This document shows, in pieces, positions 3,459 through 34,408 of a stretch of 64,000 nucleotides of DNA (positions within the stretch are counted from its first letter, which is position 1; each line of letters begins with the position of its first letter). Under the pieces are notes generated by a model. That model was not told the DNA's origin and ran no database searches. It worked only from the letters and a program-made list of their open reading frames with translations. Position numbers and translations under genes: made by a program. The DNA is from Lytechinus pictus (lineage: Eukaryota). The stretch is taken from NCBI RefSeq assembly GCF_037042905.1, contig NC_087251.1:4838001-4902000 (forward strand). The letters are read 5' to 3'.

Positions 3459-4165
3459 GTCCACACAACTTTTGTTAAAATCTGCCCAACTTGGGTAATA
3501 AAAACTAATAATAGGGTAATATTTATGGTCAATTGGATAATAATTGCCCAGAATATATATATTTTTACCAACATACATTACCCAATAAAGTGGACAGTAT
3601 GTTGCCCAACATTGCAGAACCCTTTATCGTCCTTAAAAAGTTCCAAATACGGGACAAAGGAAGGTTCTAATAAGCACTTTTTTCTAAAAGTGTATTTTTT
3701 GCGTCGGAGCCAGAAAACTCGATCTGTCTTTACGAGCATGATCTTTGGCTACGGGTGATCGCTATTTATAATAGCTAATCTTTACTACGATCATCTTACG
3801 ATGTATTATAGTCTGCGATGTAGGGGACATCTAGAGGTGGCTACGAGCTCGATTTATCGTACCTGCTTTTATTTGTAAGGCCTCTTATAAAGGGACAAAG
3901 ACAAGGCCATACAGAGGCTGTAATGAGATTATTAACAATCGTATGAAGGTCGTGAGGAGATGCAAGGAAGTCGTACGTTGCCTCGAGGAGGGGGAGTAAT
4001 TGATGGGTCTCCGGTTTGTTCCCTCACTCCTACGCAAGCATCTAAATAGAGTAATCATGAATTTTTAATGTTGAATTATAACGTTCACCAGAGCGATAGG
4101 AGAGTCTAAAATTTGCTCGATTTTTTGTATTCTTTCTAAAAATCATTAGTAAAGAGTTGTCTTAC

Positions 4166-11808: not shown

Positions 11809-12365
11809 CTGGAACAAAAAGAAACATATACAATTTTAGTCAATTACAGAGTGATTTTTCGTCGCTCACACCACTTCCAGAATGGATGAGTCAGATCGGA
11901 TTGCTTTAAAATGATGATTTCAAAATTTGGTCTGATGGCAGCTTAACAAGATTTCTAACACACAGGCTTTATGATATTGTCTCTGGCGAAAACTGCTTCT
12001 GTATAACACCTGCAAAACAATGGACCTACTACATAGGTTCATGGCAAAACATATCCCTAACCATAATCCTAATCCACACATCTCAAACTCTAGCATAACC
12101 ATGATAACCCTAATCTTAACCATATTATGTATAAATTAATACAGAAGCATCGACGTGGGAGCTTATATTGGCCATTTCTGATGGTAGGACTTCGAGTTTA
12201 AAATCACATGACCCTAACTCTGCAATAGCACTATTTCGTATTGTCCAACATCCCATGTATATAGGCCTACGTTCCTGGAGAAAAGTGTCAGAACAATCAG
12301 AAGCAGGCTTAGGTAACATCATTGGTCTAGTCACATCATTTACCCCTAAGATCAACATGACTTAC

Positions 12366-12751
12366 TCTTAACAAATCCAGCTGAAAACCAGAAATTCCTG
12401 AGAAGTCTGGTCGAATATCTCCGAACCCTATGGTGGTCACAGTCTCAACTATATAGTAAAAACTGCTTGTGAATGTCCAGTTCTGCTGCGTGAAGTAGTA
12501 TGCTAAACTGGGCGGGATGAGCATCAGTATGACGATATGATATACCAAAGTCATATCAGCAGAAACAATCCCAATTTTTGGACAGCGCTTTAGACAGATC
12601 TGTAGACTCATACTGATTCTGTTGAGGCAGAGCCTCTGGAGGATTTGACCCACTGAGCCAATTAAACTCCATGTAAGTAAGATGCCTACGACAGCGTAAG
12701 GCATGCAGAAGATCTGAGCCAGTCCCGTACGTGGAGAACAATAACCAAATC
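12366..12751 (-). CDS. K2P potassium channel, exon 2 (end of pore 1, TM2, TM3, pore 2)
   Basis: Acceptor CTTTCTTCAG|GA completes TTVG-FG. GFGYCSPRT...FCMPYAVVGI...WTFTSSFYYIVETVTTIGFGDIRP is the K2P signature. Donor AGA|GTAAGT. Confidence 0.92.
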
Positions 12752-12959
12752 CTGAAGAAAGTATAAAGACGGATAAACAAACCCTAAAATAGTTATCATG
12801 GTTCATGAATATATATAGTTGCCTGTGGGGTGGGCATAACTCAAGTCTTATTTCATTTAAATGACAATTTGAATGAATATTAATCGCAAGGGCCCCAAAT
12901 TACAACATTAAAATTTTCGGTTGACTATGTCCATAGGTTGACTGATAATAGTATACAAA

Positions 12960-14100: not shown

Positions 14101-17010
14101 GGAAAACTGGACAACTGCATATCAATGTATCCAGTCCAAACGTATTATTTTAACCATGAAACTTTAGTGTGGACACCGTAATCATATCTCCTTGGTGGAT
14201 TTTAAATGAACTATGTCCATTTTTAAAGTAACAGCAGTCATTTTAGAATCCGTTTTTTGGAAGCCATTTCGGATTTTCAACATACTGGATGACCACTGAC
14301 CGTCCTTGTACCTAATTTCCTGACTTTTAAAACCACGGTAAAGACATCAAAATCATATGCCCATGACGGATATTACATGAACTATGTCCATTTGTAAATA
14401 CCAGCGGCTAATTTTTACTATTTTTTAAGCTACCGTGGACTTTAGGACATAATTGTCCACCCATCGTCCAGGCTGATCGTCCTTGGAACTTATCCTAATG
14501 TATTGTTTGACCCATTTAACCATGGTATAGGCACAAAAACCATATTTCCGGATATTGAACAAACTATGTTTTTTTTTTTAAGAAGCAACAGTATTTTTTA
14601 CTCCATTTCTGGAAGCTATCTTGGATTTTTGAACATACCAGACCACTGACTGTTGTCCCAATGTATTATTCAACCATTGAAACCATGATCTAGACACCAA
14701 AATCGCATCTCCCAGGTAGATATGATATGAGCTATGTCCATTTTAATTATTAAAAGCCATTTCAAACATAATATAGACCACAGACAAGCTACAGCAACAC
14801 TAGAAACAAGGAGACAAAAGGGGCATTAGTGAATATATAGAGAAGACCAATCAGGTTAGTGAAGGGGATGAAAGAAAAGGAGTAGGCAGACACAAAGGGA
14901 AGTTCGTGTAAGTAAGGCCAGTAAAAGACCTCAAATAAAGAGGGATTAAGATAATGAGGCAGGCAACATCAAACATGATCTGGAACAAAACAGTGTTAGA
15001 GGGTATGAGGAAGAGATGAATAACAAGAGAATTAGTGAGAGGTGGGTCAAACAGGTTACAAAGAAAGGCATAATAAACTGGTGCATAAGATAATGTGCAA
15101 AAGACATATAAGTATATATGATAAAGCATTAAACAAACTAAGAGAAGAAGGTAAGTGTAAAGATGTATCTATGAGTGATATGTATATAAATATATCCAAA
15201 AAAGAAATGTATATGAACAAATATAAATACACATATGGTGTAACTGATATTGTAATCCGCTATATAGGTGTGACGGGAAAAAAACATAAGACTATATGTA
15301 GTAGGAAAAAAAAACCCTGTATATGTGAAAAAGAGGAAGCAAATTGCCTAAAAAGGTAAAAGCAAATATAGAAGAGAGGGGGTGTATTATGAAGAAACCA
15401 TAGTATACATGTAAATAAGCAAATGTGGTAAATCTAAAAGAGGTGAGTGGAGAAAAAAAAATATATAATAATTATTATATCGCCTGAATAAGGAAGGAAA
15501 AATTGGAGCTGAGCTTGTATGAGATATGGGAGGAAAGTAGAGGAAGAAACTATAATGTAACTATTCAAAAGAGATGAGAGGAAAAATATATGTATATATA
15601 AATTGAAAGTGGATAGGAAAGAATAATCAGTCGTTCCTTATTTTAATTAGAAGAACAGCGTTGAGTGTGGTTTAAGTTTGAACACTCACCATTAACATAG
15701 TCAATTTCATATATCTATTTTCATTTCCGATTCTTCATTTGTTATCCGTGAGTTCACTGTATCACGCACAAATCTTTCGCCTTTTATTAAAGATTTCCGT
15801 GCAGAGGACCAATAAGATCGGAATTTAATAATTTATTTCTGCCTTGTCTTCGGATGAGGCTTACATTCATGTAACGAAATACATAATTTAAATCAAACAG
15901 CGAAGATATGGAAGATATCAATAAATATTTGTAATTAACTGCGAAATTATGTTTCAATGTTTTAAGTTACCGACCGTAATATGATGAATAACATAACAAG
16001 GTGGGTGAGGCGGCTGGCTATTTTCATTGGAGGCACACGACTTGAAGTGACGTCTTTTTTTCCTCAAGTGAATAGGGTATTATTGAGTATTATTAACGGC
16101 TCAGATCTACTCTTTACAATCATCTTTCTTCTCTTTCCCATTTTATTCGTCTTTTTATTTTATTTCAATTTTTTCTCGTCTTCCCTTGCGTTTTCACAAA
16201 CTGAAAAATCACGGGGTTGGGGCAGGGTGTCACCTTTGCCACTGTAAAGTGTATCGCCGCATCTGCTACTTTTTGAACTACGCTTCTCAGCATCAGTTTG
16301 TACATTCTACATTAACTAGATTTCATGCACACACTGCCCCCTTCCAGCTCTTAAGTTAAACAGTATGGCCCATGGCACAGAGTTTTGTTTACATTCATTA
16401 TGGTGATATCACACGAGTAGCCTACAACTCCCCCTTTAACACTAAAAATATACGCACATTCAAACATATTTTTTGCTCATTCTGATGATAGGACATAATT
16501 ATAATCCATGATATGATGTTGAGAAATGATCTGTATTACATGTCATCTCATAAAACTGAACACTGATCTTGCGATATAGACTAGATAAAAAATGGAAATT
16601 ATACACTAATTGATGGGGAGGTTGCCTTATCTTATTTGTAAGTTTAAAGCTAAAAATATATATACTTAAACATCATTCTTTAGGACTACCCCTACCTGGC
16701 CCCTACACCCGTTAAAATTCCGTCTATGGCTCTTGTCAAAAGGAATAGGATTTCTAGTAAAACGTTTGTTTAAAAATCAAAAGAAATGCTTCATTTTACT
16801 TTATTTGAAAGACTATAGAAGTCGGAGAAGAGGCCTTTTGTATATAAACGTATTTTCGTGATGTTTGAGTAAATTGCTTTGGAGTATGCTTGAAAAGTCT
16901 ATGCTTTCCAGTACATTCCCTTTTCATCTTCATCTTATTGTATTTCGTTTTAATTTCATGACCATTCTTAGACTAGAGACTCAACGAGCTTGTATCATCA
17001 TGAATCTTAC

Positions 17011-18571: not shown

Positions 18572-18618
<47 letters not shown>

Positions 18619-18713
18619 AAAGAAATGGATGAAGAGAACAATGGTAGGCGTAGCTTAAATCAAGGTTCCCCAGAGCTATCTACCCTTTGGAAAAATTGGT
18701 GATGCCGAAAAAA

Positions 18714-18785
18714 TGTCTCTGCCGGGAATCGAACCCGGGCCCCCAGCTTTGAACGCCGGTACCTTAACCACTAGACCACAGAGAC
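18714..18785 (-). tRNA. tRNA-like gene, anticodon TCA (copy 1; D-stem has an extra G-T pair)
   Basis: Cloverleaf as in copy 2 with AGGT instead of AGGC in the D arm. Followed by TTTTTT. Confidence 0.55.
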
Positions 18786-19120
18786 GGGTTAGTGGCTAGG
18801 GCGACCCCGATCCGATTGACCGTCAGATAGACAGATTTTCGACACTATACCAATTATAATTTCCTTTGTCGGGTGAAGGTGGGTTTCGAACAATGACAAG
18901 CCGCCATGCTTCAGCTGGATCAAAGCTATTGCTTTGATACAGTACACGTATGGGAGAAAGTATACAAATGTGTAAAGTTATACATGTACAACAGCTTTGG
19001 CAACTCTTTTATTTAAATATTGTAAAGAAGTGGATGAAGAGAACAATGGTAGGCGTAGCTTAAATCAAGGTTCCCCACAGAGCTATCTACCCTATGGAAA
19101 AATTGGTGATGCCGAAAAAA

Positions 19121-19192
19121 TGTCTCTGCCGGGAATCGAACCCGGGCCCCCAGCTTTGAACGCCGGTGCCTTAACCACTAGACCACAGAGAC
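19121..19192 (-). tRNA. tRNA-like gene, anticodon TCA (UGA-reading, not Sec-type) (copy 2)
   Basis: GTCTCTG TG GTCT AGTGGTTA AGGC A CCGGC GTTCAAA GCTGG GGGC CCGGG TTCGATT CCCGG CAGAGAC A. All four stems pair, length is 72 nt, A and B boxes are present and a T6 terminator follows immediately. Function unproven. Confidence 0.6.
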
Positions 19193-19437
19193 GGGTTAGT
19201 AGCTAGGGCGACCCCGATCCGATTGACCGTCAGATAGACAGATTTTCGACACTATACCAATTATAATTTCCTTTGTCGGGTGAAGGTGGGTTTCGAACAA
19301 TGACAAGCCGCCATGCTTCAGCTGGATCAAAGCTATTGCTTTGATACAGTACACGTATAGGAGAAAGTATATAAATGTGTAAAGTTTTACAAGTCCACTC
19401 CCAAAAATGTACATACATACATAAACATGTATATGTT

Positions 19438-19557
<120 letters not shown>

Positions 19558-22485: not shown

Positions 22486-22489
22486 GATA

Positions 22490-23222
22490 ATACAAATATA
22501 TTATGGAGGACATGAAATGTAAGATGAGCAGAGGCAAGTGTACAGTGAGCTAGTTTTTCAAAAAAGGAGATAATACAAATATATATGGAGGACAATGTAA
22601 GATGAGCTGAGGCAAGTGTGCAGTGAGGTTTTTTCGAAAGAGGAGATAATACAAATATATATGGCGGAGGACAATGTAAGATGAGCTGAGGCAAGTGTGC
22701 AGTGAGGTTTTTTCGAAAGAGGAGATAATACAAATCATGTAAGATGAGGTGAGGAAAGTGTAGGCCTACGGTGATGGTTTTATAAAAAAATGTATAATAA
22801 TAATAAAATATATGTAGAGGACAATGTAAGATGAGATGAGGCAAGTGTGCAGTGATGTTTTTTCAAAGATTGTATAATGATAAAATATATGTAGAGGACA
22901 ATGTAAGATGAGCTGAGGCAAGTGTGCAGTGAGGTTTTTTCGAAAGAGGAGATAATACAAATCATGTAAGATGAGGTGAGGAAAGTGTGCAGTGAGTTTT
23001 TTTCGAAAGAGGAGATAATACAAATCATGTAAGATGAGGTGAGGAAAGTGTACGGTGATGGTTTTATTAAAAAATGTATAATAATAATAAAATATATGTA
23101 GAGGACAATGTAAGATGAGATGAGGCAAGTGTGTAGTGATGTTTTTTCAAAGATTGTATAATGATAAAATATATGTAGAGGACAATGTAAGATGAGATGA
23201 GGCAAGTGTAAAGTGAGGTTTT
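22490..23222 (-). repeat. tandem array (~57-76-bp units), left arm of the foldback element
   Basis: Repeated GAGGACAATGTAAGATGAG...GAGGCAAGTGTGCAGTGAGG. Confidence 0.9.
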
Positions 23223-25639
23223 ATCCGATTTTGATGAAATTTTCAGTCTCATGAACTTTAAGACAAAAATGTAATGAAAATAGGCTTATGTGGCGGTAAG
23301 GCAAGTCTCAAATCATATGGATTAATTGGGGGCCAATTTTTTTGGAATGAACTTAACATCTCGAGCCGAGTGCTTTGAAGTTTGAACCTCCTGCTTGCAT
23401 GAATGAATTTTGAACCTTTCCACTCCCAAAATATATAAAATCTCTTCCCAAAAGTTGCAAATCTGATAGAAATAATTGTTTTGTCTTTTTAAAACCAGAA
23501 TATGCAAAACAATTGTCTTAATATTTTTTCTTAGTCATGTTTCACCCAAGTCAGCAGGAAAACTATGGTCCCAGAAAAAATTGACCGAGGCAAATTTACG
23601 TGGGCTGGTTCAACTGTAAGTGTCGATTTTGAAAAAAATCAAAAAATAATATCTTGTCAGTTCATAATACTCATTTTGTCGATAGGAGTCCATTCAAGGT
23701 CAATAATCATAACTGATATTAAGTGGAAAGGCTATATCTTTTCCTTGCTGATCTAGCATGTCATGATCTTTACCTCTGTCATTTTTAACTCTGCCATATT
23801 TACCCGGCACCATGAAATTGAATACCAGCCCTGAACCTTATCATCATTACCATCGATCACTTTCAAATATACCTCACACCATTTACATCATCACAAACTT
23901 CAACTCTCACACTTTGAGTCAATCAACTTAACACTCTCATGCTTGATTAATAATTTTCTGTTGTAACGGGACGCACACATTATTACTACACCAAACTGTG
24001 AGAGAACAACAGCACTTGAGTCATAACATTATGCCAAAATACCACTTAGTCTTGAATTTATTAAATTAATCAAATTGAAATATATATGACATACTGTTGC
24101 ACAAGTGGAAGCTACGTTGTCATGATAAGAATAGTAATAATAAAATTCAGAGTATATAATTAGCCATAGTATATTTGATTGACTTATACTTCAGGTTTAT
24201 GTAGCTATACATATTTCAAGTAATTGGGTTTTTTTTTTTTGGGGGGGAGGGGGATTGTCCTCAGTGATAGTTGATACCTACTGTGTGTTTGGCCAACTTT
24301 AATTGGTAAGCATACATTGACTTAATTTGTAAATGATAAAGTATATAGACCGTGCACATGTAAAGAAATTAAGTTAAAGAATATATAAAAAAAAACGACA
24401 ACAACAAACAGTATAAATGCATAACAGGTAATACAACCTATTTGAACAAAAGAACTTTCACAATTTGCAAGCACTACATTTGACAGTAAGCTGAATCAAA
24501 TAGTATAATCTGATATGGGACGGAAAGAGATTATATGTCATAACGCTTGAAAGACAATCTATTTATATGTAATTAATGGTAATTACAGGACCACTAAGTT
24601 CTTCTACATCACGGCTTTATATATTGTTGATTTATCAAGTTGTGTAAGTAGGCCTACTGTTACAATATCAGTTGCCTGGTTGAGGCAAGATTAATGGTTG
24701 TTGTGATTAAATGAAATCTATAAGAGTTAGATAACAAAATAAATACAAAAAAATACCAACAGCTAGGCAACTTTTTTTTATTTTTAATTTCATACACTAT
24801 GTGTGTTTTTTTTTTCTCATCAAAACTAAATGTGACCAGCCACCCAGAATCAACAATAAGTTGCCATGGAAAGTTTTTAGTAAATAAGCACAATAGTTTT
24901 TAATAAAAGAAAAAATATCAAAATTTAGTTAATCTAAAAGGGTAATTATTTTTCTTTATACTGTCCAAATTTAAGGTTGTAAAAGTTGAAGACAAAAATA
25001 CAAGAGTTTCTTTGAAAACCATTGCTTAATAGTTTAAGGTTGCATATTACACATCTCACAATTGAGTGAACCCCAAATATCGAACCTTGTTTTCTCCGAA
25101 TTCGTTGAAGCTCTCACCAAATTTCCTGCATTCAATCAAGTACTTAAGAGGGACATTATTGACCTCAATTGATATATCATTTTAAAGCTCATGATGTGCT
25201 TGTTCAAGATGCCATGAAAATCTTCAAATTAATATATGGCATTTATTGTTAGTTTTAGGGTGGCTGGAGACATATAGCTTGTCAATTGCATAAAACGATC
25301 AACTTTTTTTACAAGTGACCCACATTTTTCTCAAGTTTTACTTGATCATTTTATAAACTGACCAAGCCATGGTCATTTGAGAGCATAAGACTATCAAAAG
25401 AACAAGAAATCATGACCAAAGTTTAATGTGTGGTAACAGATGCATGTTAACAATGTTTCTACACCGTCTCCTAAGACTGATGTATAGGCAGCAAAATGGT
25501 TGCAAATTTTGTCTAAAATGGTATGAGGACAATTAACAAAAAAACAAAATACCAAATAAAACACTATACACTAATGGCATAGAATCTTGCATGGAATAGT
25601 TGTCACAGAATAATGATCAGCCTCAAAACTGATTACTTG

Positions 25640-27185
25640 ATAAAACCTCACCGTACACTTGCCTCATCTCATCTTAAGGTGTCCTCTACATATATTTTAT
25701 CATTATACATTTTTTTTTTTATAAAACCTCACCGTACACTTTCCTCATCTCATCTTACATTTTTCTCCACATATATTTATATTATCTCCTCTTTTGAAAA
25801 AAAACATCACCGTATACTTTCCTCACCTCATCTTACATTGTCCTCTATATATGGTTGTATTACCTTCTCTTTAAAAAAAACCTCATTGCACACTTGCCTC
25901 GGCTCATCTTACAGTAACATTGTCCTGTACCAGTGGCATACCTAGGATTTCCCCCGGGGGGGGGGGGGGGGCAAAACCGTCCGCCAAAAAATTTGACAAG
26001 CAAAAAAAAAAGTTATCAATCACAAATAAAGGATTTCGTACAAGAAAAAAAAATTGGCAAGAAAAAAAAAGGTCTTCATGCTCGTCAGGGGGGCAATAGA
26101 GGTCTTCAAGCTCGTCAGGGGGGCAAAAAGGTCTTCCAAGCTCGTCAGGGGGGCAGGGATACATCTTTTGCATGGGTGGTGGCTCATCGGGGGGGGGGGG
26201 GCAGACTGCCCCCCCCCCCCCGTAGGTACGCTAGTGTCCTATACATATATTTGTATTATCTCCTCTTTCGAAAAAAAAAAAATCACGGTACACTTGCCTC
26301 ATCTCATCTTACGTTGTCCTCTACATATATTTATATTGTCTCCTCTTTTGAAAAAAACCTCAGTGCACACTTGCCTCATCTCATCTTACATTGTCCTCCA
26401 CATATATTTGTATTATCTCCTCTTTTGAAAAACCTCACTGTACACTTGTCTTTTCTCATCTTACATTGTCCTCCACATATATTTGTATTATCTCCACTTT
26501 TGAAAAAACCTCACTGCACACTTGCCTCATCTCATCTTACATTGTCCTCCACATATATTTATATTATCTCCTCTTTTGGAAAAACCTCACTGCACACTTG
26601 CCTCATCTCATCTTACATTGTCCTCCACATATATTTATATTGTCTCCTCTTTTGAAAAAACCTCAGTGCACACTTGCCTCATCTCATCTTACATTGTCCT
26701 CCACATATATTTGTATTATCTCCTCTTTTGGAAATACCTTACTGCACACTTGCCTCATCTCATCTTACATTGTCCTCCACATATATTTGTATTATCTCCT
26801 CTTTTGAAAAACCTCACTGTACACTTGCCTCTTCTCATCTTACATTGTCCTCCACATATATTTGTATTATCTCCTCTTTTGAAAAAACCTCACTGCACAC
26901 TTGCCTCATCTCATCTTACATTGTCCTCCACATATATTTATATTATCTCCTCTTTCGAAAAAACCTCACTGCACACTTGCCTCATCTCATCTTACATTGT
27001 CCTCCACATATATTTGTATTATCTCCTTTTTTTGAAAAACCTCACTGTACACTTGCCTCAGCTCATCTTACATTGTCCTCCATAATATATTTGTATTATG
27101 ATCTCCTCTTCTGAAAAAACCCTCACTGCACACTTGCCTCACCTCATCTTCCATTGTCCTCCATATATTTATATTATTTCCTCTT
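25640..27185 (+). repeat. tandem array (~76-bp units), right arm of the foldback element
   Basis: Repeated CCTCACTGCACACTTGCCTCATCTCATCTTACATTGTCCTCCACATATATTTGTATTATCTCCTCTTTTGAAAAAA; consecutive unit starts at 26509 and 26585. Confidence 0.92.
25931..26236. mobile_element. hAT MITE (CAGTGGCGTACC family) in the right foldback arm
   Basis: CAGTGGCATACCTAGG ... CGTAGGTACGCTAGTG. TSD TCCTGTAC / TCCTATAC. Confidence 0.85.
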
Positions 27186-27528
27186 ATGTAAAAACTTCAT
27201 CAAACACTTATATTTTCTACACTATAAACTCCTACGTTGTTTTATACACACACGCACCATTTGAAAACTCTCTTTGGTTGTTTACACTCGGTATTGTACA
27301 CACACACACATGCACACGACCACGATCTAATGAATATTCATCGGCGAACCGTCGGATGGATAGTGACGTAGGAGCTGGACATTTTATCGCCCCTCGCTGT
27401 ACTTTGTCATCAAAAGTGCTTACCGAATGGGTAGCCTCGCAGCATGTCCGCTTACGTGTGCAATCCCGGTGGCCGTGGTTGCTAAATAAATCTCAAAGTA
27501 AACTAAGGTCGAGTTCTGTTGATCAAGA

Positions 27529-32199: not shown

Positions 32200-34408
32200 A
32201 GCAAGGATAAAGGTGTAGAGCAAGGATAAAGGATAAAGGTGTAGAGGATGCCTGGAAGTTTTTTGTAGACACCTTGACTGAAAAAATTGAGAAATTCATA
32301 CCCATGTCAAAACCAAAGCACTGCAGGAAAAAACAGAGATGGATGACAAGAGAGGCCCTTAGGAAGCAGAGCCAAAAGCACCGGGCATGGAAGGAAGCAC
32401 GGAGAACAAATCATCCGGTAGACATCATGAGAGCAAAAAGATTGGCTAAAGAACTGCGAACTGTCACCAAACAGTTATGTAGAAATTATGAGAAGGAGTT
32501 GGCTCAAAATGTGAAGTCCAATCCAAAGGCTTTCTGGCGGTATGCTCATAGCAAACTGAAAACGTCCTGTAGATTAGGAGAAATTCGAGAACCGGAAGGA
32601 GACCCAATATCTTCAGACAAGGGAAAAGCAAATGCATTAAATGCATTCTTTGCCACTACATTCACTGATGAGGATATGAATTGGATTCCAAGACTCAAAC
32701 CAAAGTACACAGGAGAATCATTGACATCCATATCCATTTCTGAAGATGATGTTTATAAGAAGCTTGTCAGCTTGTCAAAGTTTAAAAGTGCAGGTCCTGA
32801 TGGCATCCACCCATGTGTTCTGAAGTCAACAGCTGCATCTGTCTCTGAGCCCCTTGCCCTGATCTACAATGCATCACTGAAGGAAGGCAAACTACCAGGT
32901 GCCTGGAAGGTCAGTCACGTTGTGCCGGTCCACAAAAAAGGTAGTAAGGTGGATATAAGGAATTACAGACCAATCAGCCTGACTTCTGTTCCATGCAAAA
33001 TATTGGAATCACTCATTCGAGATGAGATAGTTGTTCATCTACTAAAAAATGACCTTCTATGTGATGAACAGCATGGATTCGTTCCTGGCCGCTCATGTGT
33101 GACACAGCTCCTAACAGTAATGGAGGAATGGACTAAAATGTTAGATGTAGGAGCTCCTATTGATGTGATCTATTTGGATTTTAAGAAAGCCTTTGACAGT
33201 GTTCCTCACCTTCGCCTACTCTCCAAACTTGATGCTTACGGTATAGGTGGTGAACTTAAGTCTTGGATAAAAGACTTTCTACAAGGAAGACACCAGAGAG
33301 TAAAAGTCAATGAGGAGTTATCTGACTGGACTAGGGTTAGAAGCGGCGTGCCCCAAGGTAGTGTTCTCGGCCCGACAATGTTTGTTATCTCCATAAATGA
33401 TCTGCCAGAATGCCTTCAAGGGAAAGTCAGGATGTATGCTGATGACACTAAGCTCTATGGTAAAGCCTCTACCAACGATGATCTCTGTGTAATACAGAAT
33501 GACCTCGATACCCTAACAGAATGGAGTAATACTTGGCAGTTGCACTTCAACTCAGAAAAGTGCAAAGTATTACATATCGGCCCAGGAAATGCTAAGCACA
33601 CATATTTTCTTGGATCCGATTTACTTGAGCACACTTCAGAAGAAAGAGATCTTGGCATACTGATTGACGATGAACTTAAATTTCATAACCATGTTGCAAG
33701 TACTGTGAAAAAGGCCAACGGCGTACTCTCATGTATACGACGTAGTTTTGAATGCAGAGATAAATTTACAATCCCAAGACTCTACAAAGGACTTGTCAGA
33801 CCGATCTTGGATTATGGCAACTCTATATGGTACCCCAGATTCAAGGGTGATGCTAAAGCCATAGAGAAAGTTCAAAAGAGAGCAACCAAAATGATCTATG
33901 CTATTAGGAATCACTCATACACAGAGAGACTGAAGGCACTCAACCTCCCATCTCTTCAGTACCGCAGACGTCGTGGAGACATGATCCAAGTGTACAAAAT
34001 TGTTCATGGATTTGAACGCATCCCAAGTGATGCCTTCTTTGAACTTTCAGCAGGCAATACAAGAGGTCACAGTCTGAAGCTTTCTAAACCCAGATGCTTG
34101 ACCAAACTGAGGCAAGATTCATTCAGCCAGCGGGTTATAAATGACTGGAACTCACTCCCTGAAGAAGTAGTTACAGCTCAGACTGTGAATAGCTTTAAGA
34201 TCAGACTGGACAAAGTGTGGGCAGACCAGCGGTTCTGCTCACCATATGAGTAGCAAACATCTTATAGAAGGTAGAGATCTGAGCCAAAACGACACTGAGC
34301 AGACACCACACCAATCATTGAGACGGATGAAAATGGCACAGAACTGGAAGCCTGACTGCTGGGATCCACAGCACTCTTCCAGAATCTCGGGTAAAGGTAA
34401 AGGGTAAA
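32200..34408 (+). mobile_element. 5'-truncated CR1-group LINE
   Basis: Uninterrupted ORF2 remnant, short 3' UTR and a GGTAAA-repeat tail at 34390-34408. Confidence 0.92.
32274..34253 (+). CDS. LINE ORF2 reverse transcriptase (endonuclease domain lost by truncation; no true start codon)
   Basis: KSAGPDGIHP, NYRPISLTS, QHGF, YLDFKKAFDSVPH, SGVPQGSVLGP, YADD, ERDLG, RRRGDMIQVYK, TRGHSLKL, FSQRVINDWNSLP are typical of the CR1 clade. Confidence 0.95.
   Translation: MTEKIEKFIPMSKPKHCRKKQRWMTREALRKQSQKHRAWKEARRTNHPVDIMRAKRLAKELRTVTKQLCRNYEKELAQNVKSNPKAFWRYAHSKLKTSCRLGEIREPEGDPISSDKGKANALNAFFATTFTDEDMNWIPRLKPKYTGESLTSISISEDDVYKKLVSLSKFKSAGPDGIHPCVLKSTAASVSEPLALIYNASLKEGKLPGAWKVSHVVPVHKKGSKVDIRNYRPISLTSVPCKILESLIRDEIVVHLLKNDLLCDEQHGFVPGRSCVTQLLTVMEEWTKMLDVGAPIDVIYLDFKKAFDSVPHLRLLSKLDAYGIGGELKSWIKDFLQGRHQRVKVNEELSDWTRVRSGVPQGSVLGPTMFVISINDLPECLQGKVRMYADDTKLYGKASTNDDLCVIQNDLDTLTEWSNTWQLHFNSEKCKVLHIGPGNAKHTYFLGSDLLEHTSEERDLGILIDDELKFHNHVASTVKKANGVLSCIRRSFECRDKFTIPRLYKGLVRPILDYGNSIWYPRFKGDAKAIEKVQKRATKMIYAIRNHSYTERLKALNLPSLQYRRRRGDMIQVYKIVHGFERIPSDAFFELSAGNTRGHSLKLSKPRCLTKLRQDSFSQRVINDWNSLPEEVVTAQTVNSFKIRLDKVWADQRFCSPYE

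Follow-up and report, generated by a model that had tools for sequence, protein, structure and literature searches.

A probable Penelope-type non-autonomous element carrying a UCA tRNA in Lytechinus pictus and a putative tRNA-splicing route to a circular RNA

The window analysed here, a 64,000-nt stretch of Lytechinus pictus DNA (assembly GCF_037042905.1, contig NC_087251.1, positions 4,838,001 to 4,902,000), holds exactly two tRNA genes according to ARAGORN, each 72 nt long, with the anticodon TCA and on the minus strand (window positions 19121-19192 in the upstream and 18714-18785 in the downstream unit of a tandem repeat). Both are also recognized by the Rfam tRNA model RF00005 (60.9 bits, E 9.8e-11 for the upstream and 58.5 bits, E 4.6e-10 for the downstream one), which finds each of the four stems paired, and the complete cloverleaves described in an earlier note on this DNA are thereby borne out. 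The 7-bp acceptor stem, A73, the 4-nt variable loop, G32, the T arm and the T6 that follows directly (19115-19120 and 18708-18713, minus strand; Pol III terminator-like and also paired in the predicted RNA rod discussed below) all agree with the sequence. Small amendments concern the stems: the upstream cloverleaf has the majority sequence of its family, whereas the downstream one carries C25T, which leaves its D stem with a G-U closing pair; one G-U wobble each is present in the D stem and the anticodon stem. The anticodon loops (positions 32-38) lie at 19155-19161 and 18748-18754 on the minus strand. Elsewhere, the window contains a U5 snRNA gene (15743-15861, plus strand; Rfam, 76.6 bits) whose loop 1 ends in U as compared to the consensus C, a 680-aa open frame with an RVT_1 domain (32211-34253, plus strand) that is probably a LINE-type retrotransposon fragment, a frame matching Ion_trans_2 (12336-12899, minus strand) that is likely an exon of a host potassium-channel gene, and arrays of 76-79-bp units in opposite orientations (22486-23224 and 25642-27199), suggesting inverted ends of another repeat element.

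The two cloverleaves belong to neighbouring units of a 407-bp tandem that are 97 % identical and flanked by two (TA)n tracts, i. e., (TA)62 at 19430-19554 on the 5′ side and (TA)21 at 18574-18615 at the 3′ end. The whole insertion (18614-19397, minus strand) comprises 1.9 head-to-tail units of a 405-bp repeat, is 5′-truncated at about 19397 and runs into the (TA)n with a 3′ end that we term end A. Within the unit, the tRNA occupies positions 226-297 and thus the middle. A stretch of about 50 nt (18961-19012, minus strand) corresponds to a "tail" at which insertions at other genomic sites have the other of their two fixed 3′ ends (end B).

While the earlier note spoke of two copies, which is correct for the window, at least 1,750 sites of the 812-Mb genome match exactly the 28 fixed bases that surround the free anticodon (0 with the reversed control), 1,723 of them (98.5 %) with TCA, and a motif in the 3′ flank of the repeat has 3,125 matches. 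The proposal that a mobile repeat carries the tRNA has held up. In addition, the 405-bp unit forms satellite arrays, one of at least 44 units (C2:8866000-8883700) and others with higher-order periodicity (C28:762000-908000), which together amount to hundreds of tandem UCA tRNA look-alikes.

Sampled insertions have a characteristic architecture. Inverted parts were found in 60 of 135, and the outer 3′ ends (n=193) fall on end A, the unit end, in 84 cases, on end B, about 50 nt further on, in 87 and elsewhere in 22, with TA or CA repeats adjoining 139 of them. The 5′ ends, surveyed in 71 segments picked via the flank motif, are scattered. Three of them fall 5 nt or less from where the tRNA starts and position 38 has none; a sharp pile-up was likewise absent from position 58 and from either end of the tRNA, and the mild excess between unit positions 278 and 297 (12/71) is unconvincing. 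Segments longer than one unit account for 22 of the 71. Units diverge by 1.2 % inside one insertion as compared to 3.7 % between insertions, and non-majority variants are held in common in 161 of 383 cases within and in 2,430 of 59,324 between insertions, which points to one monomeric or homogeneous template per insertion. The window insertion is an unclean example of this rule, as its two units differ at 8 of 369 sites and have no minority variant in common. According to the accessible text of PMC8557442, insertions of Penelope-like elements (PLEs) comprise partial tandems, an inverted 5′-truncated copy and a tail and are targeted to (TA)n, and the tail was ascribed to reverse transcription that starts at two internal sites under the guidance of an RNA element (PMC11167929, available part). 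The repeat displays the partial tandem, the inverted 5′-truncated copy, the tail and the microsatellite target, while an ORF is absent. Partial tandems, inversions, two fixed 3′ ends, random 5′ ends and (TA)n targets together make up the Penelope-like signature, and the inverted copies agree better with PLE-type inversion than with a foldback DNA element. We are highly confident that the repeat is non-autonomous and of PLE type, and that its tRNA acts in the life cycle of the element and not in the decoding of UGA.

The same features set the repeat apart from the two classes that its tRNA first brings to mind, in agreement with the earlier assessment that it is neither a tRNA-Sec nor an ordinary SINE head. 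The likeness to tRNA-Sec consists in the UCA anticodon; as far as PMC5330540 describes it in its accessible part, tRNA-Sec has a 9/4 fold, a 6-bp D stem, a long variable arm, G73 and about 90 nt, whereas the present tRNA has 72 nt, a 7/5 fold, a 4-bp D stem, no variable arm and A73. The tRNA-Sec model RF01852 scored above its cut-off at two other loci only (L207 and L208), where the host tRNA-Sec genes are identical; one of them is on a small contig and possibly an assembly duplicate. With tRNA-derived SINEs, as portrayed in the available part of PMC3531059, the repeat has in common that it is short and non-autonomous, has many copies (at least 100) and intact A and B boxes, and reaches 60 % identity to a tRNA over 60 nt (48/72 to tRNA-Glu). 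By comparison with the SINEs of that account, its tRNA is internal and tandem instead of forming a 5′ head, T6 follows directly after the tRNA, 5′ ends are random and insertions are of PLE and not LINE type; a 5′ tRNA head and interspersed non-tandem copies were accordingly not found. Another tRNA-like repeat of this genome (L198:2075-2146 and L151, about 3680-3730; tRNA-Met CAT according to ARAGORN), with an imperfect acceptor stem and a read-through body, is probably an ordinary SINE.

PLEs of the Hydra clade are the candidate partners. Their ORFs in this genome encode 719-810 aa with the motifs RW[KR], DKT, CxCx5C, CxxC and CxH, and the elements end in (TA)n; Pfam gave no match for two Hydra ORFs. 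At least three such families (loci L147-L176) combine long open frames, (TA)n targets and tails of about 66 nt; two families have hammerheads near the 3′ end, and one has a CUGAAGA variant of the hammerhead core. The 405-bp element or an older relative was present in 9 of 30 Hydra loci and near none of the 16 C-terminal-endonuclease PLE loci retrieved by a GIY-YIG family search; leaving out the three loci that first pointed to Hydra, the numbers are 6/27 and 0/16 (p 0.049). (TA)8 is present in 13 of these 16 other loci, yet without the 405-bp element. ORFs adjoining the unit were considered as its own coding part and rejected, as they proved to be separate Hydra insertions in the same (TA)n and no long ORF was continuous with the unit. 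No terminal sequence common to the unit and PLEs emerged from 46 PLE loci compared, a set without Naiads. Likely, the unit depends for its copying on Penelope-like retrotransposons that act in trans, probably those of the Hydra clade, the partner being suggested solely by co-targeting. The Hydra/Naiad endonuclease-positive PLEs in the accessible text of PMC8557442 resemble the repeat in partial tandems, the inverted 5′-truncated copy, the one-end tail and the (TA)n targets, as opposed to which the repeat has no ORF, is non-autonomous, bears a tRNA and lacks the hammerhead with which Hydra ends are equipped.

How selection acts on the tRNA becomes apparent from a second, older family (B; loci L177-L206, about 404-408 bp), which was first met beside a Hydra copy and has the same layout as the young family A of the window. 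Its copies are about 80 % identical to each other, and young family-A copies often adjoin them. Within family A, private changes per site amount to 0.0066 in the tRNA and to 0.005-0.0085 in the flanks (in a sample partly picked through the tRNA), indicating that single copies decay neutrally. Between the families, for which a family-B majority tRNA was built from 47 fragments of 30 loci, 10 of 72 tRNA positions differ, 8 of them in stems, and all eight stem changes keep pairing, and in pairs 2-71, 6-67 and 28-42 both partners have changed. No difference between A and B was present in the D and T arms (p ~1e-5), while the flanks are identical at 143 of 195 positions (73 %). This stem compensation and the constancy of the D and T arms against flanks that have diverged by 27 % indicate that the fold is selected at the level of the active lineages of the element. 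In the comparison against the flanks that the earlier note called for, single copies change at the flank rate and the stems covary between families; selection on the fold is upheld at the latter level.

The anticodon itself gives no such sign of selection. Family B keeps G32-U-UCA, with a TCA majority (28-31 of about 32 fragments at each anticodon position), and retention of UCA (p ~0.39) or of positions 32-36 (p 0.21) between the families is within chance. At a neutral rate of 0.5 % per site, the 98.5 % TCA in the genome reflects the youth of the copies. Moreover, U33A occurs in 16 copies at 10 loci, and an A36C (UCC) lineage is defined by eight insertions with 2-6 linked rare markers in common; both changes break UGA decoding and were nonetheless copied onward, so that decoding is dispensable for spread. 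Among the host tRNAs compared, a set without Gly(TCC), tRNA-Glu(TTC) has the nearest body (48/72), matching at 15 of 15 positions in 7-21 and at 21 of 22 in 44-65.

In the predicted RNA structure, the tRNA is embedded in a rod. The unit RNA folds far below shuffled controls (z -6.5, and -6.8 for the circular fold against 60 shuffles), with outer arms formed in the window's downstream unit by 18846-18907 (5′) and 18647-18707 (3′, both minus strand). The 60 nt upstream of each tRNA (19193-19252 and 18786-18845, minus strand) are a decayed antisense copy, i. e., a degenerate inverted tRNA without the anticodon arm, which we refer to as mask and whose predicted pairing partners are tRNA positions 7-25 and 44-72. 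In both families, the predicted mask leaves positions 26-43, the anticodon arm, free; 35 tRNA positions are masked in both and 10 changed pairs are still paired, which is partly circular because the pairs come from folds. The antisense duplicate has decayed and the sense tRNA copy has not. In the rod, the 5′ strand of the acceptor is unpaired. Predicted folds lose the cloverleaf with a leader of at least 15 nt, while with a leader of at most 5 nt the acceptor forms (p 1.0). No hammerhead was matched by Rfam in the unit at E up to 10, and a CUGAAG...GAAA look-alike was discarded, as neither the core A9 nor closing stems are there and 40 sampled insertions have a broken GAAA.

Three raw RNA-seq runs from one study place 910-1,764 of 12.9 million reads on the unit, unstranded and equally on both strands, without pile-ups of read starts or ends. 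The best share (0.014 %) is below the rough genomic share (0.10 %), hence these three runs show no high expression of the unit. Reads spanning the unit junction are present, which tandem loci would yield as well. Neighbouring repeats have a depth of the same order or few-fold lower, and the U5 snRNA gene of the window received 0 reads, according to which the libraries seem to miss small non-polyadenylated RNA and are uninformative on a mature tRNA or circle. In run X21, about half of the depth over window positions 18612-19016 stems from one sample-specific haplotype (about 96 % identical) that mostly crosses the unit junction and represents either a transcribed array or a circle.

Close to the repeat in organisation are animal non-LTR retrozymes, for which the accessible parts of PMC7229834 and bioRxiv 10.64898/2026.07.22.740005 describe non-coding units of 150-450 bp with low GC, dimers to long arrays, strongly self-paired RNA, a proposed PLE-driven spread and circles that are proposed to be closed by RtcB. 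The repeat resembles them as a short non-coding tandem unit of low GC that ranges from dimers to long arrays and has self-paired RNA, but a type I hammerhead was not found in the unit, where a conserved tRNA and an antisense mask are present instead; no sequence link to PLE terminal repeats was found, and the circles of the repeat are putative. We consider it nearly an even question, with the balance slightly on the doubtful side, whether the tRNA is a central module that replaces the retrozyme hammerhead, in that host tRNA-splicing enzymes cut a two-unit RNA into a unit-length circle. Somewhat more tentative is the full scheme, in which the selfish RNA would serve as its own tRNA intron: a pre-tRNA assembled from halves in adjacent units would be cut out by the endonuclease of tRNA splicing (TSEN) at a bulge-helix-bulge around G32:C35′ and closed by RtcB, the restored tRNA would be masked, and the circle would be rolled into (TA)n by a Hydra-clade PLE reverse transcriptase, with a UCA tRNA shed as by-product.

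Starting from the insertions of Penelope-type architecture observed in (TA)n targets, the scheme would run as follows. In an RNA reaching from one tRNA to the next, a single tRNA body is predicted to arise from the 5′ half of tRNA n together with the 3′ half of n+1, with both inner halves sequestered by the antisense mask. Swapped anticodon stems would then put the whole unit at the canonical 37/38 intron position, which in the window predicts a 5′ splice site between 19156 and 19155 in the upstream unit and a 3′ splice site between 18749 and 18748 in the downstream unit (minus strand). G32 of unit n would pair with C35 of unit n+1 (in the window, within the downstream loop) and, across two weak U-U pairs, C35 with G32′, with 3-nt bulges, giving a motif akin to a bulge-helix-bulge. 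The odd G32 would thus be explained as part of the anticodon-intron pair, and UCA would largely be a by-product of the self-complementary G-U-U-C. TSEN would cut and RtcB close the 405-nt intron, which may fold as a rod in which the mask would shield the restored tRNA against RNase P and Z. Finally, the PLE reverse transcriptase may prime at nicked (TA)n, begin at one of two internal sites and, by rolling round the circle, generate truncated, tandem and inverted copies.

Known tRNA-splicing substrates offer a comparison. In the accessible parts of PMC6614914 and PMC10485636, pre-tRNAs that release circular introns (tricRNAs) would resemble the predicted two-unit RNA in the tRNA body, an insertion placeable at 37/38, a strong pair at 32 and weak inner pairs; they differ from it in that here the "intron" would be a selfish unit with a permuted second tRNA, the exons would come from adjacent units, and G32 replaces the usual C32. 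Reporters from fly and human are sensitive to how strong the pair at 32 is, and an anticodon-intron pair of G-C performs like one of C-G. Weak inner pairs occur naturally, whereas full pairing lowers the yield, and the intron circles are made by RtcB (PMC6614914, available part). For Xenopus TSEN, a bulge-helix-bulge by itself was enough in vitro (PMC10485636, likewise in part). For family A, folding of the two-unit RNA (ViennaRNA, from G1 to the T6 of the next unit) yields the acceptor in trans at p 0.99, a D arm of n at 0.61-0.67 and a T arm of n+1 at 0.83-0.86; for family B, it gives a poor D arm of n (0.09). The predicted fold, however, keeps the anticodon stems in cis (0.92 and 0.81, as compared to 0.02-0.04 for the swap, with G32:C35′ at about 0); the swapped arm lies 2.2-3.0 kcal/mol above the minimum, and to force the G-C pairs takes about another 5 kcal/mol, apart from the U33A variant. 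ARAGORN calls a split tRNA when an intron of 300-450 nt is allowed, but at register 31/32 instead of 37/38. When the upstream mask is present, as in Pol II read-through, no tRNA body is predicted; the precursor consequently needs a Pol III start or truncation at the tRNA. The circle route must also have Pol III pass a T6 and later a T5, and read-through by Pol III is reported to be common in yeast and to fall with tract length (bioRxiv 2021.08.27.457903, accessible part).

Variants of the loop that are common to at least two units of a multi-unit insertion bear on the pairing at G32:C35′. Changes of G32 (0/6) and C35A (0/2) were never shared in this way, in comparison to U33A in 4/4, U33C in 1/4, U34A in 0/1, C35U in 2/4 and A36C in 2/3, i. 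e., 0/8 for pair-breaking and 9/16 for other variants (post-hoc Fisher p 0.009, or 0.045 if C35U is counted as pair-breaking); taken by itself, the 0/6 for G32 does not differ significantly from the 14 % sharing rate of private variants (p 0.40). It speaks against the circle model that C35U, which gives a G-U pair, is nevertheless common to units in two of four old insertions, as a G-U anticodon-intron pair gave almost no product in a fly reporter (PMC6614914, accessible part). That the unit has no sequence in common with Hydra ends also counts against it, as judged from the sequence comparison. Furthermore, long tandem transcripts from the C2 and C28 arrays could template multi-unit copies without circles.

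This last point leads to the strongest competing explanation, an unlikely one that deserves serious consideration, in which the tRNA is an internal Pol III promoter and/or a tag for processing by RNase P and RNase Z, the anticodon loop is incidental, and multi-unit copies derive from tandem read-through transcripts or from monomers joined in another way. The unchanged D and T arms, which contain the A and B boxes, fit this, as do the acceptor that forms behind a short leader, an acceptor covariation that suits RNase P and Z, and an anticodon retained no better than by chance. Stem covariation would, however, be unneeded for a promoter alone, the 5′ ends do not pile up at the tRNA start or end, and cleavage by P and Z together would remove the tRNA, which the copies nevertheless retain; G32 and a mask that spares exactly the anticodon arm in both families are left unexplained. 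Distinctly less probable is that the tRNA-derived rod recruits the PLE protein or protects the RNA, with the tRNA fold kept for binding and not for cleavage. The strong rod predicted for both families with its (partly circular) common masked positions would agree with this, and so would the guidance of internally starting PLE reverse transcription by an RNA element (PMC11167929, available part), but with the 5′ strand of the acceptor unpaired in the rod, the double changes that preserve the acceptor stem have no explanation.

We judge very improbable what the earlier note had suggested, a working UGA-reading or decoy tRNA that the repeat spreads for the host or for a partner with in-frame UGA. 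It is true that the element has the cloverleaf with UCA, intact boxes and T6 of an opal suppressor, that nearly all family-A copies and the family-B majority read TCA, and that a short Pol III RNA is predicted to fold as a tRNA, which splicing would yield as well. No purifying selection was found on the anticodon or U33, however: the share of TCA is what young neutral copies lead one to expect, copies decay at the flank rate, and lineages with U33A and UCC were propagated. In the long RNA, the cloverleaf is predicted to be masked. A purine at position 32, here G32, is rare in decoding tRNAs, and thousands of suppressor genes would presumably be costly. Decoding of UGA in a Hydra partner was also considered and dropped, as the long Hydra ORFs examined are open without UGA; Naiad selenoprotein elements lie outside this set. 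Least credible of all is that a young repeat captured a tRNA-Glu gene of which the tRNA is a neutral remnant. Although single copies decay neutrally and the body matches host tRNA-Glu(TTC) closely, the pairing kept in 8/8 stem changes, D and T arms frozen beside diverging flanks, and an antisense duplicate that decayed next to an intact sense copy all speak against it.

Summed up, the fold is conserved as part of a Penelope-type selfish repeat and not as a suppressor gene. The element would work like a retrozyme but has no hammerhead and is not counted among the retrozymes, nor is it a SINE or a tRNA-Sec; we file it as a variant of non-autonomous PLE. A literature search returned no description of a tRNA-bearing, PLE-mobilised tandem element; Repbase or supplements may hold the family under a repeat name. 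If the route through TSEN and circles holds, the repeat would be a new kind of mobile RNA, a transposon that hijacks the tRNA-splicing endonuclease and hence a natural non-tRNA use of metazoan TSEN, which would open a new natural route to replicating circular RNA. It would likewise provide a simple and abundant substrate for asking how tandem and tailed insertions of PLEs arise and whether their template is a circle. For the genome of L. pictus itself, the repeat would account for the flood of false tRNA-Sec and suppressor calls and would pose the question of how a genome tolerates thousands of intact UCA tRNA genes.
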